Part shown: in pieces, positions 4,064 to 31,832 of the stretch
How positions within the stretch are numbered: position 1 is the stretch's first letter
Layout of the letters: every line of letters starts with the position of its first letter
Assembly: GCA_038063975.1 (NCBI GenBank)
Contig: JBBTTY010000010.1
Location: 1 to 40,116, forward strand
Length of the DNA: 40,116 nucleotides
Reading direction: 5' to 3'
Origin: Patescibacteria group bacterium
GTDB taxonomy: Bacteria; Patescibacteriota; Minisyncoccia; Phycocordibacterales; UBA6065
Made by a program: the position numbers and the translations under genes
Notes under the pieces: generated by a model
Told to the model about the DNA's origin: nothing
Database searches by the model: none
The model's input: only the letters and a program-made list of their open reading frames with translations

Positions 4064-4248
4064 TGAAGATTTTTGAAAAAGATGGAATACCATTTTGTTA
4101 TGATGCTCTCATTTTTTAGACAGCAACCTAAACCCACGACCGTGAGGTCGGGGAGGTTCACAATGCCTGTGGATGTCTTTATTCTAAGTTTTGCAATCTA
4201 TGGACTTTTCTCTATAAAAAGAGATAATACTGCCATTGCCAAATTGAA

Positions 4249-5805
4249 ATGAAGCTTTCTATCGTTGTCCCCGTATTCAATGAAGAAAAAACGATTGACG
4301 AGATACTCTCGCGTATTTTTGATGTGAAAATCCCGAGCTGGACCACGGAGGTTATTGTTGTAGATGACGCTTCCAGCGACAGGACGTCCCACATACTCAA
4401 AAATTACGCTCATAAAATCAAGGTCATCACTCATGATCAAAACAGAGGCAAGGGCACGGCGGTTACTCACGGCCTGAAAGAAGTTACAGGCGACTACATT
4501 TTGATCCAAGACGCCGATCTCGAATATCATCCGAGAGAAATTTCTTCACTCATTGCGGCGATCGGAAAAAATAACGCTCGTGTAGTCTATGGCTCGCGCA
4601 ATCTCCACCATGAAAAGAGAGAAGGCTTCATATTTCAGAGGCTCGGCGTATGGATCATAACGAAACTAATAAATTGGATGTATGGAGCGCGACTCACAGA
4701 CGTTTGGACTTGTTACAAGCTCTTTCCAAGGGATGTAAAGAAACATTTTGTGTCAGGCAGATTCGAAGCGGAGCTCCTCTTTACTTCCGCTCTCCTGCGA
4801 GGAGGACATATCATAACGGAAGTGCCTATTTCGCATGCTCCTCGCGTTGCGAATGAGGGTAAAAAGATCCGCTATCGCGACGGTTTTCGTGCCATCCGAT
4901 TACTCTTTGCTGACAAGCTCGTCAATTTGCGCAAACCGCAAGCTAGAGAAACAAACGATCACTCTCATATAATTTGTTGCCCATTTTGCAAAGCAGATCT
5001 CCTCAAAAATCCATCTGGTCTCGTATGCAAAACCCATGGGCCTTTCACCATAGACAGTTCGCACCGACCTATTCTCATAGAACGAGAAATCTATGAGCGA
5101 AACAGTTCACAACACGAATCGGGAGTGACATGGCTTAAGTCTTTTTTAAAGCAATGGCCCGATCTCTATCATGCGGTTTGGCACTACGCTTGTCCGGCGA
5201 TGATGCTCGTAAACGGACCGCGCATGATTTTGGATAGAGTCAAAGAGGGAAGCGTCGTCATAGATGTCGGCTCCGGTCCCGAGAGGTTGGGTCGGGAATT
5301 CATAAACATAGACATCTTTCCATTTCCCGAAGTGGATATTGTCTCTGATGCCACGCAATTGCCCTTCAAAAATAATACTCTCGATGGCGCTGTCTCGGAG
5401 TCTCTCTTTGAGCACGTGCCTGATGCACATCTCATCGCTCGCGAAATGGTGCGTGTGGTAAAGCCAGGCGGATACATATATGTGAGCGCACCTTTCATAC
5501 ATCCATATCACACATCTCCAGACGATTTCAATCGCTGGACGCTATCTGGTTTGAAACACATGTTCGAGGACCTAGAGATTGTAGAAGCGGGCGTGCGTTC
5601 CGGCCCTTGGAGCGCTTTTCTCCTCTTTTTTGCGTATTGGCTTGGTGTTATTTTTTCCTTTGGCTCGCGTCGTATTGCGCCTTTTCTCGCTCATATATTC
5701 ATGCTTGTCCTCGGTCCACTCAAATATCTTGACATCATCTTTATCCATATGCCCGGTTCCGAAACTGTGGCCACGCATCTTTATATTTTAGGACGGAAGA
5801 AATAA
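4249..5805 (+). CDS. Fusion protein: polyprenol-phosphate-type GT2 (DPM1/GtrB/ArnC-like) + Cys-rich zinc-ribbon linker + class I SAM methyltransferase + C-terminal TM helices
   Basis: GT2 domain: LSIVVPVFNEEKTI...VIVVDDASSDRT...NRGKGTAV...IQDADLEYHP...VYGSR. Linker: CCPFCKADL...LVCKTHG. Methyltransferase domain (Methyltransf_11-like): VIDVGSGPERLG...DATQLPF...LFEHV...VKPGGYIYVSAP. Hydrophobic tail: WSAFLLFFAYWLGVIFSF and FLAHIFMLVLGPL. Confidence 0.85.
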   Translation: MKLSIVVPVFNEEKTIDEILSRIFDVKIPSWTTEVIVVDDASSDRTSHILKNYAHKIKVITHDQNRGKGTAVTHGLKEVTGDYILIQDADLEYHPREISSLIAAIGKNNARVVYGSRNLHHEKREGFIFQRLGVWIITKLINWMYGARLTDVWTCYKLFPRDVKKHFVSGRFEAELLFTSALLRGGHIITEVPISHAPRVANEGKKIRYRDGFRAIRLLFADKLVNLRKPQARETNDHSHIICCPFCKADLLKNPSGLVCKTHGPFTIDSSHRPILIEREIYERNSSQHESGVTWLKSFLKQWPDLYHAVWHYACPAMMLVNGPRMILDRVKEGSVVIDVGSGPERLGREFINIDIFPFPEVDIVSDATQLPFKNNTLDGAVSESLFEHVPDAHLIAREMVRVVKPGGYIYVSAPFIHPYHTSPDDFNRWTLSGLKHMFEDLEIVEAGVRSGPWSAFLLFFAYWLGVIFSFGSRRIAPFLAHIFMLVLGPLKYLDIIFIHMPGSETVATHLYILGRKK

Positions 5806-28364: not shown

Positions 28365-30542
28365 ATGACACTCAATGCATTTCTTAAATGGACAGCTATT
28401 ACAGGGGTTTTTGCGGTGCTTTTTGTGCCGTTTTTGGTTGCTGATTCTATGTTCTTTCCTTTTATATCAGGCAAGAATTTCATGTTCAGGATTTTGGTGG
28501 AGGTCGCTTTTGCAGCGTGGCTTCTCCTCTCTCTGCGTGATACATCTGTACGTCCTCGCAAATCAATCCTACTCTGGGCGTTTGTTGCTTTCGTGGCGAT
28601 CATCGGTCTGGCCGATATTTTCGGTCAGAGTCCATGGAAGAGTTTTTGGTCAAACTTTGAGCGTATGGAGGGTTATATAAGTACGCTTCATCTCTTTGCA
28701 TATTTTCTGGTCGCTTCGAGTATGCTTTCTACGGAAAAATTGGGAAAACGATTTTTGGAATGGTCTCTATGGTCGAGCCTCCTCATGTCTCTCTATGGTT
28801 TGCTTCAGCTCTCTGGCAAGGTGATCATAAATCAAGGTGGTGTGCGTCTCGACGGCAAATTTGGCAATGCTACATATCTGGCTATTTATCTGATTTTCAA
28901 CATTTTCTTTGCTCTCATTCTCATATACAGAGACAAGAAATTATGGAAATCTATTGTTTACGGTTTCATCGCTTTACTTCATTTTATCATCCTATATTAC
29001 ACAGCTACACGTGGAGCTATACTGGGTATTATCGGTGGTATTTTACTATCCTCGCTCATAATTGCTATTTTTGACAAGAATGACAAAAAAATGCGCATTA
29101 TTGCTGGTTCGGTTGCGGGTGCGATTTTTCTAGTGGTGCTTGGTTTCATAATGATTAAAGACACATCATTTGTGCAAGACAGTCCTGTACTTTCTCGACT
29201 TGCCGCTATATCGATTGACGATACCAAAACACAGGCTCGCGCCTATATCTGGCCGATGGCAATTAAAGGTTTCTTAGAGCATCCGATTCTCGGCCGTGGT
29301 CAGGAAAATTTCAATTATGTTTTCAATGCTAATTATGATTCGCGGATGTATGCCCAAGAACAGTGGTTCGATCATACCCATAATCTTTTCCTCGATTGGC
29401 TCATTGCAGGCGGTATACTGGGTCTCCTAGCATACCTCTCACTCTATGTTTCAGCAGTTTATTTGCTTTGGAAAAAAGCTTCTGATGTTTCATTTGTTGA
29501 GAAAACACTCTTTACCGGTCTCGGGGCGGCATATTTTTTCCACAATCTCTTTGTGTTTGACAATATAATGAGTTCCATTCTCTTTGTTTCAGTTCTGGCC
29601 TTTATTCATTTCAAAGGAACGCGATTAGAAAAAGCGATTGGAGGAAAAAAAGAAGAACTGGATGACTTTGACACGCGTATGGCCGGCCCGATTATTTTTA
29701 TACTTCTGATTTTTGTTATCTATTTCTTTAATTGGCGTGGCATTGCTACAGGCAAATCACTCATTACTGCTCTGCAAGCTCTGAATACGACGCCTGTAGC
29801 GGCCCAAATAGCACTCGGCGGTTTTGAAAAGACTTTATCTTATAACACATTAGGTCGTCCTGAAGTAGTCGAGCGGATTATCGAGGTTATACCACGTTTC
29901 GGTGATCAGAGTATTCCGATCGCCACACGACAAAAGTTTTACGAAATTGGAAAAGAAGCGGTAGAAAAGCAATTGTCGCGCTTTCCAGGCGATGCACGTT
30001 ATGAATTATTTGCTGGAAATTTCTATAGTATGTATACCAAGGTGGAAGAAGCCGAAGAGCATTATCTCAAAGCAGTGGAACTTTCTCCGAGAAAGCAATC
30101 CATTCTTTTTCAATTTGGTAATTTCTATGTGACATATAAACAGTATGAAAAAGCAGTGGCTATATATAAAAAAGCCTATGAGCTAGACAAATCTTACGAA
30201 ATCGCTGGACAACTCTATATCACAGCTCTCATATATGCCGGTAAAGAAACAGATGCGAGGCAGTTTATGAAAGAGATGTTTGGCACAGCCGATGTGACAA
30301 ATGATTTATTTCTACAGGCTTATGCAAATCTCGGTTCGTGGCCGAATGTTATAGCTATTTTGCGGGAGAGAGTGGCGAAAAATCCGGAAAATAGAGAAAA
30401 TCGTATGAATCTCGTTTCTGCCTATTATCAATCGGGGAACAAAGTGGCGGCCATAGTAGCTCTGCGAGACTACATTGCTTATGATTCATCCTTTCAGGCG
30501 CAGGGAGAAGATTATATAAAACAAATAGAAGCTGAGAAATAG
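28365..30542 (+). CDS. Polytopic O-antigen ligase/polymerase-family (Wzy_C) membrane protein fused to C-terminal TPR repeats
   Basis: About 12 hydrophobic segments are present. The Wzy_C signature region is YYTATRGAILGIIGGILLS and the periplasmic-loop motif is HTHNLFLDWLIAGGILGL. The C-terminal ~230 aa carry TPR-like repeats (EEAEEHYLKAVELSP, YEKAVAIYKKAYELD). Confidence 0.8.
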   Translation: MTLNAFLKWTAITGVFAVLFVPFLVADSMFFPFISGKNFMFRILVEVAFAAWLLLSLRDTSVRPRKSILLWAFVAFVAIIGLADIFGQSPWKSFWSNFERMEGYISTLHLFAYFLVASSMLSTEKLGKRFLEWSLWSSLLMSLYGLLQLSGKVIINQGGVRLDGKFGNATYLAIYLIFNIFFALILIYRDKKLWKSIVYGFIALLHFIILYYTATRGAILGIIGGILLSSLIIAIFDKNDKKMRIIAGSVAGAIFLVVLGFIMIKDTSFVQDSPVLSRLAAISIDDTKTQARAYIWPMAIKGFLEHPILGRGQENFNYVFNANYDSRMYAQEQWFDHTHNLFLDWLIAGGILGLLAYLSLYVSAVYLLWKKASDVSFVEKTLFTGLGAAYFFHNLFVFDNIMSSILFVSVLAFIHFKGTRLEKAIGGKKEELDDFDTRMAGPIIFILLIFVIYFFNWRGIATGKSLITALQALNTTPVAAQIALGGFEKTLSYNTLGRPEVVERIIEVIPRFGDQSIPIATRQKFYEIGKEAVEKQLSRFPGDARYELFAGNFYSMYTKVEEAEEHYLKAVELSPRKQSILFQFGNFYVTYKQYEKAVAIYKKAYELDKSYEIAGQLYITALIYAGKETDARQFMKEMFGTADVTNDLFLQAYANLGSWPNVIAILRERVAKNPENRENRMNLVSAYYQSGNKVAAIVALRDYIAYDSSFQAQGEDYIKQIEAEK

Positions 30543-30559: not shown

Positions 30560-30668
30560 GGCTACCGAAACAGTATTCATGGAGCACGGAAGTTTTCTTG
30601 CTAGAAAACTTCCTCGGTTTCGGTGCCGTCGCACCTCAAGCGTCTCCATTCTTACTGTTTCGGTAGCC
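30560..30668. repeat. Palindromic element copy A (intergenic, between the Wzy_C-TPR gene and murB)
   Basis: The outer arms GGCTACCGAAACAGTA (30560-30575) and TACTGTTTCGGTAGCC (30653-30668) are perfect reverse complements. ATGGAG/CTCCAT closes a 71-nt core (30579-30649). The core contains an 11-bp hairpin, GGAAGTTTTCT tgct AGAAAACTTCC. Confidence 0.85.
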
Positions 30669-30695
30669 TAATACAGAACATGATATTCTAATGGT

Positions 30696-31832
30696 ATGAA
30701 GTTTTTGGAGAATATTTCTCTGGCGGAATATACGACATTTAGAATTGGCGGGAAGGCTAGATATTTTTGCGTTGTGAAGAGTGAGGAAGACCTGCGAGAA
30801 GCTCTGGATTTTGCCAAAGGAAATGAGACTGGACACGCTAGTATACCTTTTTTTGTTTTAGGTAGCGGGTCAAATATTTTGGTTTCAGATGAAGGTTTTC
30901 CAGGTTTGGTTATAAAAATGGAAATGATGGGAGTGTCATTTGAAAAGAAAGATGACGGTGTGTTTGTAACAGTATCTGCAGGGCAAGATTGGGATAAATT
31001 GGTGATAAAAACTGTCGGAGAGAGTTTGTGGGGACTTGAAAATCTGTCTGGAATACCTGGGACGGTGGGCGCCGCACCGGTGCAAAATATAGGCGCTTAC
31101 GGCGCCGAAGCGAAAGATGTGATTATCTCGGTGTGTGCCGTTGATACCACGACCAGTGCGGCGCGCATTTTCACAAACACTGAATGTCAATTTTCATACC
31201 GCGAAAGTTTTTTTAAAACCACCGAAGGAAAAAAGTACGTTATAACGAACGTTACATTCAAACTTTCACAAAATCCAAAGCCAAATCTTTCTTATAGAGA
31301 TTTGAAAGAATATTTTGAAAGAAGAGGGCGAGAGAAGAGAGAATTGATGGAGCACGGAAGTTTTCTTGCTAGAAAACTTCCTCGACTTCGTCGCCGTCGC
31401 TCCTCAGGCGTCTCCATCAATTCTCTCTTCTCTCGCCCCCTATCTCTCTCTGAAATCCGCAAGGCTGTCATAGAAATCAGAAAAAGAAAATTCCCAGAGC
31501 TTTCGAAAGTAGGTACCGCAGGCTCATTTTGGAAAAATCCTATCATTTCTCCAGAGCATTTTGCAGAACTGAAAGCCAAGTACCCAAACATCCCTTCTTT
31601 TTCTTTTGACAATCAGGTAAAAGTCCCTTTAGCATGGATTCTCGACAATGTTTGCAAACTCAAAGGCTATACAAAAGGTCCCACAGGTCTCTGGAAAAAT
31701 CAGCCTTTGGTCGTTATAGCAGAAAAAGGTGCTTTTTCAAGCGATATTAAATCATTTGCTATCAAAGTTGCAAACATAGTCAAAGAAAAAACTGATATAG
31801 ACATAGAAAAAGAAGTTCAATATATAGGCTAA
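30696..31832 (+). CDS. murB: UDP-N-acetylenolpyruvoylglucosamine reductase (MurB) carrying a 38-aa in-frame insertion
   Basis: Motifs: LAEYTTFRIGGKARYF, FFVLGSGSNILVSDEGFPGLVI, GLENLSGIPGTVGAAPVQNIGAYGAE, YRES, GSFWKNP. The segment GREKRELMEHGSFLARKLPRLRRRRSSGVSINSLFSRP is encoded by the palindromic element at 31326-31439. Confidence 0.9.
   Translation: MKFLENISLAEYTTFRIGGKARYFCVVKSEEDLREALDFAKGNETGHASIPFFVLGSGSNILVSDEGFPGLVIKMEMMGVSFEKKDDGVFVTVSAGQDWDKLVIKTVGESLWGLENLSGIPGTVGAAPVQNIGAYGAEAKDVIISVCAVDTTTSAARIFTNTECQFSYRESFFKTTEGKKYVITNVTFKLSQNPKPNLSYRDLKEYFERRGREKRELMEHGSFLARKLPRLRRRRSSGVSINSLFSRPLSLSEIRKAVIEIRKRKFPELSKVGTAGSFWKNPIISPEHFAELKAKYPNIPSFSFDNQVKVPLAWILDNVCKLKGYTKGPTGLWKNQPLVVIAEKGAFSSDIKSFAIKVANIVKEKTDIDIEKEVQYIG
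31326..31438. repeat. Palindromic element copy B (inside the murB reading frame)
   Basis: A perfect 27-bp inverted repeat joins 31326-31352 (GGGCGAGAGAAGAGAGAATTGATGGAG) and 31412-31438. The 71-nt core at 31347-31417 is 65/71 identical to 30579-30649 and contains the same 11-bp inner hairpin. Confidence 0.85.

Follow-up and report, generated by a model that had tools for sequence, protein, structure and literature searches.

Two copies of a structured palindromic element lie beside and within the murB gene of a groundwater bacterium of the Paceibacteria (Patescibacteria, or Candidate Phyla Radiation, CPR), in a 40,116-nt stretch of its metagenome-assembled genome (MAG) that is called the window here (assembly GCA_038063975.1, contig JBBTTY010000010.1). 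The murB gene (30696-31832, plus strand) encodes a UDP-N-acetylenolpyruvoylglucosamine reductase with the Pfam domains PF01565 (FAD_binding_4) and PF02873 (MurB_C), and its product matches MurB in the Protein Data Bank with E=3e-53. It is preceded by a gene with Pfam matches to Wzy_C (O-antigen ligase-like) and TPR (28365-30542, plus strand). The first copy, copy A (30560-30668), is located in the spacer between these genes, where it starts 17 nt past the Wzy_C/TPR stop codon and ends 27 nt ahead of the murB ATG; the second, copy B (31323-31441), lies inside murB. Both are given on the plus strand. The remainder of the window is ordinary chromosomal sequence, with a glycan-biosynthesis cluster followed by secA, obg and gatB. 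Genes for a transposase, integrase, Rep protein, reverse transcriptase, Y1/HUH enzyme or RAYT were not found in the 40-kb window. No tRNA or tmRNA genes were found in it either, and a tRNA or tmRNA identity of the element was rejected.

The two copies form a direct repeat of 78 nt (30572-30649 and 31340-31417) with 90% identity. It includes a 67-nt core running from GGAG to CTCC (30581-30647 in copy A, 31349-31415 in copy B), which is identical at 61/67 positions; together with an identical AT on each side, this reproduces the 65/71 identity that a first-pass annotation had described for a 71-nt core. The 11-bp hairpin which it had noticed was also recovered, as were the perfect arms of 16 nt in copy A and 27 bp in copy B, by inverted-repeat search. 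The hairpin, GGAAGTTTTCT-tgct-AGAAAACTTCC, is perfect over 26 nt and occurs exactly twice in the 40 kb, against none expected from 100 shuffles. The arms of copy A (30560-30584 and 30644-30668) are 88% complementary over 25 nt. The left arm (30560-30580) begins with the 16 perfect nucleotides, followed by a 3-nt bubble, and the right arm occupies 30648-30668. In copy B the arms (31323-31352 and 31412-31441) are 97% complementary over 30 nt, with the perfect 27 bp joining 31326-31352 to 31412-31438. These are the strongest inverted repeats of the window by a wide margin.

Each copy is predicted to fold as a long stem closing a three-way junction. According to the alignment (columns 15-81) and its pair counts, the core of copy A contains the helices P2 (30588-30613), P3a (30617-30620 with 30638-30641) and P3 (30622-30635); in copy B, P2 is at 31356-31381 and the P3 region at 31390-31403. 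The RNA folds have energies of -61.3 kcal/mol (z=-10.6) for copy A and -75.8 kcal/mol (z=-10.5) for copy B, and the DNA folds of -38.3 and -46.3 kcal/mol (z about -9.8). The complementary strands of both copies fold at least equally stably. A covariance model of the element matched copy A at 30567-30665 (102.5 bits, E=5e-22) and copy B at 31335-31433 (100.1 bits), and a scan of the window with the filters off found these two copies only. The P3 region of copy B holds the variant GTCGCCGTCGCTCC, a tandem CGTCGC hexamer and not a hairpin, with 2/5 pairs broken; the same variant is found unchanged in four different arm clusters, and the related loci L004, L021 and L028 have it too.

Copies A and B are members of a genuine repeat family that is restricted to one clade. 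A search for the exact pattern in 185,579 genomes, one per species, yielded 10 true copies in three Patescibacteria MAGs, with 3-4 exact-core copies per genome, and one chance terminator in a Firmicutes MAG. A looser pattern, which left the inside of P2 free, added 13 copies from groundwater metagenomes and five chance GC-rich matches. The covariance model was built from 24 distinct copies; applied to the fetched loci, it revealed further diverged members, along with three or more additional core variants. The family thus comprises 31 distinct copies, found in the genomes of three representative Patescibacteria species, in related MAGs and in metagenomes from groundwater, which bears out the earlier suggestion of a structured palindromic repeat as opposed to a local duplication. 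The elements are 105-159 nt long, with arms of 19-46 bp around an asymmetric 67-nt core, whose small hairpins P2 and P3a/P3 give a T- or Y-shaped three-way junction on one strand. The core variants differ in the sequences of P2 and P3, and their layout is the same (P1 - YAC - P2 - UCG.. - P3a/P3 - ..CUCC).

Searches against known families gave no classification. No Rfam 15 family was detected in the whole window at the gathering score, and a permissive search of the region returned only plant miRNA-precursor models (at most 39 bits, against thresholds of at least 60), models that fit any long purine-rich stem. Viral contigs gave no match in three pattern scans, and a viral or phage origin was therefore rejected. 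A hammerhead-like motif on the minus strand (CUGACGA-GGC..GCC-GAG) was rejected on inspection, because it falls within the P3 hairpin, is missing from the remaining P3 variants and would carry G at the place of A14 in the hammerhead core. No description of such elements in Patescibacteria was found in the searchable literature.

The pairing of the element is strongly maintained. In an ungapped alignment of 24 copies, 95.9% of the pair cells hold standard pairs, compared with 42-57% when the partner is slid, and 22/39 pairs have changed on both sides. In the 31 copies, which include four core variants and were fitted to the covariance model, 95.0% of the cells are paired and 35/39 pairs show two-sided changes; in P2 the paired fraction reaches 99.7%, and 10 of its 11 pairs covary. 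This two-sided covariation confirms the earlier claim that the structure is kept while the arm sequence changes. Covarying helices would fit a functional structured RNA, which might work in cis as a 3'-end, terminator or processing module or might be a small RNA that is bound at its three-way-junction core by a conserved protein of the host, with its copies selected at each locus. This explanation is considered unlikely, and the kind of changes is one reason. Substitutions are nearly always from one Watson-Crick pair to another, including transversion pairs such as AU<->UA, whereas G.U intermediates are nearly absent from the roughly 1,200 pair cells. When two inherited wobble columns are set aside, 13 A.C mismatches stand against 7 G.T, and thus G.U is not in excess over A.C. 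The minus strand folding at least as stably and the absence of an Rfam match also speak against a structured RNA.

Moreover, insertions and deletions (indels) are mirrored between the arms. For example, 4 nt (ATGG) are inserted in each arm of the orthologous murB copy of L031, and a duplication of ~14 nt is present in each arm of L010 relative to L008. Selection alone cannot make such changes, but they can arise when one arm serves as the template for the other, and quasipalindrome template switching is an established process that works in this way. The Watson-Crick-only changes, the excess of A.C over G.T, the mirrored indels and the folding of both strands argue together for a strand-symmetric DNA palindrome, and the element thus seems to act and evolve as DNA and not as a strand-specific RNA. 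The first-pass annotation had proposed either selection on a long hairpin or its generation; these observations are unfavourable to selection on an RNA hairpin and favour templated generation.

Perfect GC-rich palindromes of 12-14 bp were also observed within the native murB sequence of distant orthologues (L038:2756-2785, L039:2262-2288, L039:2870-2900 and L040:3349-3379). They encode GGADVFVRAA and DTPFFAAKNGV, and their palindromy is retained between orthologues by compensated changes. This suggests that these genomes generally tend to perfect palindromes, or that hairpins are selected for in the mRNA or DNA.

Copy B adds 38 codons to murB (31326-31439, plus strand), which encode residues 211-248 (GREKRELMEHGSFLARKLPRLRRRRSSGVSINSLFSRP) in element frame +0 without a stop; the open reading frame (ORF) translation agrees with the in-frame insertion recognised before. 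The closest solved structure, MurB of P. aeruginosa (7orz), aligns with query residues 3-211 and 253-373, and the 41 residues between them replace a 7-residue interdomain linker (206-212). Among 108 homologues, the loop F207-R255 is short in 79 (11-13 residues) and long in 13 (30-56 residues), so the segment is missing from most orthologues, as had been anticipated. For example, L035 (67% identity) has the empty site YFSSSSPSLSEIR. A model calculated by AlphaFold2 with the 108-sequence alignment kept the MurB fold (mean pLDDT 90.7), with residues 221-240 at a low 56-62; the preceding helix was prolonged in the insert and followed by coil. The insertion site is predicted to be a permissive surface linker compatible with the MurB fold. 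Additional variable loops of MurB were located in alignment columns 88-115 and 150-165. At window positions 30813-30842 (residues ~40-50), a short extra segment, GNETGHASIP, is present near residue 45 and is also found in P0002. A different 10-residue insert lies just N-terminal of this position in P0003, and the loop after FEKK/FED is variable in length among the relatives.

The long inserts at the linker were compared at the DNA level. Each of the eight that were examined keeps the reading frame and is encoded by an inverted repeat, and their arms and cores make up six unrelated groups. The window and L031 have orthologous arms around a type-1 core, and the compensated substitutions in P2 change three amino acids (LAR to STE). 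L030 carries the arms of the window as a perfect 16-bp palindrome without the core. L033 has a type-2 core within other arms, and L036 a type-1 core in the opposite orientation, again within other arms. The insert of L037 is a 27-bp arms-only palindrome, L038 and L040 both contain a related short-core palindrome, and L039 has 18-bp arms around a centre of roughly 65 nt. A further orthologue, P0110, ends inside P2, probably at a contig break. The six groups might have arisen by separate insertions into a permissive loop, or one ancient copy might have been replaced in place. A six-frame peptide probe of 5.8 billion proteins returned 18 candidates and one tiny ORF, with no evidence for host proteins besides MurB. 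A second, simpler palindromic repeat (..AAAACCAAAG-tta-CTTTGGTTTT..) was observed in two related genomes (L005:2403-2435 and L017:592-620); the arms-only palindrome in murB of L037 likewise contains AAAACCAA.

The compensated change in L031, where the pairing is kept and the peptide is not, would also suit a structured RNA, the murB copy then being a regulatory hairpin in the mRNA, such as an RNase III site tuning the expression of murB-secA. Among known MITEs (miniature transposable elements with inverted repeats), Correia and ERIC are substrates of RNase III or RNase E (PMC10969869).

Another possibility is that the element in murB is lost ahead of translation, being cut out of the RNA like an intron at the hairpin base or out of the DNA by programmed excision, which would give a MurB without the 38 residues. 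A perfect stem of 33 bp would bring both flanks together, and CPR bacteria are known for insertions in their rRNA genes. This is nevertheless regarded as very improbable. The consensus core has stops in 4/6 frames, yet the murB copies of the window and L031 use the open frame +0. The inserts of all six groups are multiples of three and free of stops, which is expected if the insert is translated under selection and which argues against its removal, as an excised sequence would lack such a constraint. Rfam searches gave no signature of a group I or II intron, a ribozyme or a bulge-helix-bulge, and the AlphaFold2 model accommodates the segment as helix extension and loop with the fold undisturbed.

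That the finding is an artefact of assembly or a chimera, or that copy A was merely duplicated locally into murB, has a negligible probability. Repeats can cause mis-joins, and P0110 is truncated exactly within the repeat. However, an identical 378-aa MurB was found on four contigs; of the two listed, one belongs to the NCBI MAG GCA_964361125.1 and the other to a replicate assembly of Hainich H51 in the ENA, a different record, and this identity across assembly records makes an artefact unlikely. Orthologous in-frame copies are also present in other species and metagenomes: L031 and L032 come from separate JGI and ENA assemblies, and P0110 is a further case. The reading frame is intact. Moreover, the two copies of the window differ in their arms and in the P3 variant, so neither is a recent copy of the other.

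Among 29 copies examined for their genomic context, 25 are clearly intergenic, and 19 of these lie within 38 nt of a stop codon. Such a position right after stops, together with the A-run/T-run outer arms which resemble bidirectional terminators in several copies elsewhere, would be compatible with a structured RNA, and some family members may terminate transcription. However, the orientation is mixed: where one upstream gene can be assigned, 9 copies are co-directional with it and 5 anti-directional, and 5 of the 19 stop-proximal copies lie between convergent genes. Neither window copy was called as an intrinsic terminator, and no T-run follows their arms. The earlier proposal that copy A acts as a terminator therefore fits the usual post-stop position of the family, but not the missing U-tract, the terminator prediction or the mixed orientation. 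A copy in L011 (1618-1731) has an open +0 frame, which extends the gene call of a TPM-domain protein by ~40 codons (MQNSEKNVLLEHGSFLARKLPRFRRRRVSSVST..), and a signal-peptide-like Met follows. It was considered as a second ORF insertion and rejected, as only the ORF call is extended through the upstream copy.

The spacer copy can be followed in related genomes. The synteny wzy-murB-secA is kept in L030, L033, L035 and L038, in which the proteins are 67-89% identical to those of the window. At 4-fold sites of the flanking genes the identity is only 38-51%, near saturation (27% is expected by chance). A spacer element with recognisably orthologous arms is present in four genomes, and the changes in its arms are compensated: GGCTACCGAAACAGTA in the window, GGCTTCCGAAACAGTAT in L033, GGCTTCCGAACAATGCTG in L030 and CAGACTTCTGAAATAGCAC in L035. 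Three other relatives have a spacer without the element. The enclosed cores are of type 1 in plus orientation (window and L035), type 1 in minus orientation (L033) or type 2 (L030). The core of copy A is identical to that of its L035 orthologue at 58/67 positions, and the other comparisons between orthologous loci gave 53/67 and 50/67; the orthologous spacer cores are 79-87% identical. This conservation above the 4-fold sites is a further point for a structured RNA and keeps that explanation in contention. As far as these alignments can tell, the spacer element is either constrained in place or repeatedly renewed, and copy A appears to be an old element that orthologous loci have kept at the 3' end of the wzy-like gene, in the typical niche of the family. 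It may serve as a transcript-end or processing hairpin.

Extra arm-like sequence was observed beside the spacer element. L033 has a solo GCTTTCGAACAGTGCCG straight after the wzy stop (2831-2850), which resembles the left arm of L030, and L035 has a 20-nt tandem duplication, CTAACTCGTCAGACTTCTGA x2 (2838-2878), that takes in the outer left arm. These sequences may have been left by earlier elements or have arisen as a by-product when an element inserted. The solo arm-like sequences near the spacer element in L031, L033 and L035 prompted the idea that the arms are an inverted duplication of the flanking target. This was rejected as a general rule, since the arms have a family consensus and the native MurB sequence resumes only past the right arm.

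The arms and the core differ in their conservation, with a mean pairwise identity of 55% in the arms and 90.6% in the core. In the 24-31 copies compared, the arms form subfamilies with a loose common consensus (..GCGAAAGAAGTGTTCTTGT adjoining GGAG). Copies A and B have 57% of 28 core-adjacent arm positions in common, and some copies have their outer-arm sequence in common over 35-40 bp. The first-pass view that the arms are unrelated was thus not sustained, and the contrast which it drew with families having common terminal repeats was overstated. At the same time, eleven distinct copies from several species have an identical core (67/67), and the arms of such copies may have as few as 5/14 positions in common (range 5/14 to 10/14 per arm). 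Judged by these comparisons, cores and arms have partly separate histories, with reassortment between them. The eleven identical cores might also be taken as a sign of a structured RNA; however, identity that includes helices and loops alike resembles recency or conversion more than an RNA-type constraint.

The separate histories could be explained in two layers: only the 67-nt T-shaped core would be mobile, entering and leaving the apex of pre-existing terminator-like hairpins, and the arms would belong to the target. The core would be handled as folded single-stranded DNA by a structure-specific enzyme. Besides the identical cores in very different arms, the orthologous spacer arms with different cores in different genomes are in line with this model, and so are the perfect arms-only palindromes at the murB site of L030 (with the arms of the window) and L037. 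No target-site duplication lies outside the arms, and the targeting of hairpins has a precedent in IS1111, which targets a REP-like palindrome in Coxiella (PMC5896051). Nevertheless, the model is rather improbable. The arms of nearly all copies have a family consensus and subfamilies, as if they were part of the element, and hairpins with arm-like sequence but no core are rare across about 230 kb. One of them, the hairpin GGCGGAAAGGAAGTCT-gctcgtgg-AGACTTCCTTTTCGCC at L010:4775-4814, lies ~500 nt from a full element and has family-type arms without the core; it keeps the CTCGTGGAG junction and therefore appears to be a core-deletion product, not a virgin target. The insertion of cores into naive hairpins was rejected on these grounds. 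In addition, the nearest relatives of L030 (window, L031 and P0110) have the core, so that its loss in L030 is more parsimonious. A pre-existing perfect palindrome of 16-27 bp in the MurB linker is not expected, and the reassortment of P3 variants is explicable by short-patch gene conversion.

A related proposal treats the 67-nt core as an independently mobile or convertible DNA module, which would be handled as a folded single strand by an HUH/Rep-like or recombinase-like enzyme. The core would ride in hairpins whose arms are regenerated by template switching, and a constraint would keep it identical across species. We consider this proposal unlikely. If true, it would define a new class of hairpin-borne mobile DNA in the streamlined CPR genomes, which remodels one MurB linker repeatedly.

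[quoted passage not shown] It is a low-copy, clade-restricted element in related Paceibacteria genomes, composed of two inverted arms around an asymmetric core. Templated arm-to-arm copying, by quasipalindrome template switching or by repair of the extruded hairpin, would keep the arms, P2 and P3 Watson-Crick paired and would also mirror the indels, so that the arms could drift fast yet remain complementary. The cores would be exchanged or renewed between copies through gene conversion, horizontal spread or core movement, and cores that are identical within divergent arms would thereby be accounted for. The murB copy would be carried in the mRNA and translated. In this essential gene, only in-frame, stop-free insertions in a permissive surface linker would survive selection, and this might be the reason for several palindromic inserts and arms-only decay products at one loop.

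Several observations weigh against this explanation. No presence/absence polymorphism was seen between close strains, and mobility is deduced from multiplicity alone. The window contains no cognate transposase, integrase, Rep or reverse transcriptase gene, and the 3-4 exact-core copies in each representative genome are unlike a proliferating MITE. A search for target-site duplications gave flanking direct repeats of 0-5 nt, inconsistent in length, AT-rich and at chance level, with the ends delimited in 16/24 copies. Translation of the insert is deduced from the preserved frame and absence of stops alone, and this evidence is partly biased, as the inserts were found through full-length protein hits. 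Moreover, an identical core in eleven copies of several species is not predicted for a selfish, neutrally decaying element, and the orthologous copies have 75-87% core identity and up to 16/17 identical arm positions, compared with 38-51% at the 4-fold sites. The conservation of the core above neutral sites indicates purifying selection for some function, or else continuing conversion or re-insertion. The identical core across species possibly reflects selection by way of a trans-acting partner, gene conversion together with horizontal spread between CPR bacteria that co-occur in aquifers, or a core that is itself mobile.

The non-autonomous palindrome element was compared with known systems. 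RPE insertions were reportedly interpreted as surface loops by Ogata and Claverie. Like the present element, RPEs are palindromic repeats of ~100-150 bp that lie in frame in coding genes, including housekeeping genes, add a peptide tolerated by the fold and have no recognised transposase (PMC10969869). Their hosts are Rickettsiales and they occupy dozens of different ORFs, whereas here the hosts are Paceibacteria, of an unrelated phylum, and one MurB loop is seen colonised. The RPE families are also defined by a conserved encoded peptide, whereas in this family the pairing is conserved at the expense of the peptide. RPEs are the closest precedent for the in-frame insertion, as had been supposed at first; the likeness is one of features alone, and no sequence relationship is expected.

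Some MITEs, such as Correia/NEMIS, ERIC, Coxiella QMITE2 and SPRITE, form hairpins in intergenic regions or 3'-untranslated regions (3'-UTRs), are occasionally in frame, and were in some cases inverted in place (PMC10969869, PMC5896051). The present element is similarly small, non-coding and multi-copy, with long stem-loops and a preference for intergenic or 3'-UTR positions. It differs in having no consistent target-site duplication, an invariant centre with variable terminal repeats, a very low copy number and a conserved three-way junction, and in the lack of a related insertion sequence (no transposase in the window). In REPINs, according to the reported work of Bertels and Rainey (2011), the REP arms are acted on as folded single-stranded DNA by RAYT. 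The REP/REPIN-RAYT system resembles the present family in its hairpin repeats downstream of genes, its lack of target-site duplications, and the compensated changes of REPIN arms. REP elements carry GTAG/CGTC tags (PMC3733652). In contrast, the arms here have neither a GTAG nor a CGTC tag, and the window has no RAYT gene; moreover, REPINs combine conserved arms with a variable spacer, which is the reverse of the situation in this family. From RPEs, MITEs and REPINs alike the element is set apart by a conserved centre with variable arms, the T-shaped core, the lack of a target-site duplication or terminal tag, and a very low copy number. It thus does not conform to the strict definition of a MITE or a REPIN, and it is placed among palindromic repeats as a variant of a known phenomenon, not as a new category.

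Template switching is said, in the work of Ripley and of Lovett, to turn imperfect inverted repeats into perfect ones by copying substitutions and indels from arm to arm. The same pattern of mirrored changes is seen in the arms, P2 and P3. However, template switching is a mutational process and not a family; it accounts for the pairing and leaves the many copies and the conserved core unexplained. The T-shaped terminal hairpins of parvoviruses (such as the inverted terminal repeats of adeno-associated virus), integron attC sites, CTX attP and single-stranded DNA origins are similar in shape only, with a stem, two inner palindromes, flip/flop orientation of the core and copied arms. These are termini or recombination sites of replicons with known enzymes, none of which occurs in this context. 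In attC sites, moreover, conserved outer boxes surround a variable centre, the reverse of the arrangement here, and no integrase gene is present in the window. Such folded single-stranded DNA sites might offer a lead, not a classification.

Within the searchable literature, this is a previously undescribed family of ultra-small groundwater bacteria and would be the first RPE-like case found for the CPR. The genomes of these bacteria measure only ~1 Mb, are highly streamlined and are regarded as repeat-poor. The 67-nt core is identical despite saturated synonymous sites in its flanks, which may point to a trans-acting partner, and the same linker of an essential enzyme has been colonised in at least six different forms. 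The murB orthologues may thus be seen as a natural experiment in how palindromic DNA gives rise to new protein segments, with the full element, the arms-only palindrome and the ordinary loop side by side. They also provide an unusually clean example of strictly Watson-Crick, mirrored palindrome evolution, coding sequence included. In practice, elements of this type interrupt assemblies, as in P0110, and cause gene calls in CPR MAGs to be inflated or split, as in L011.

Some minor features were observed around murB. A conserved TGATA(A/T)TCT box, similar to an extended -10 element, is located at window positions 30681-30689, 7-15 nt 5' of the murB ATG, and it occurs at the matching position in L030, L031, L033 and L035. 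The murB start has no Shine-Dalgarno sequence. The gene may therefore have its own promoter, immediately upstream of which copy A would lie, and an mRNA with little or no leader. On the 3' side of murB the synteny is broken in two relatives: in L031 a gene for a Bsp6I-type restriction endonuclease (4548-5111) takes the place of secA, and in L037 ~1.5 kb with a 104-aa ORF (4129-5676) lies between murB and secA.

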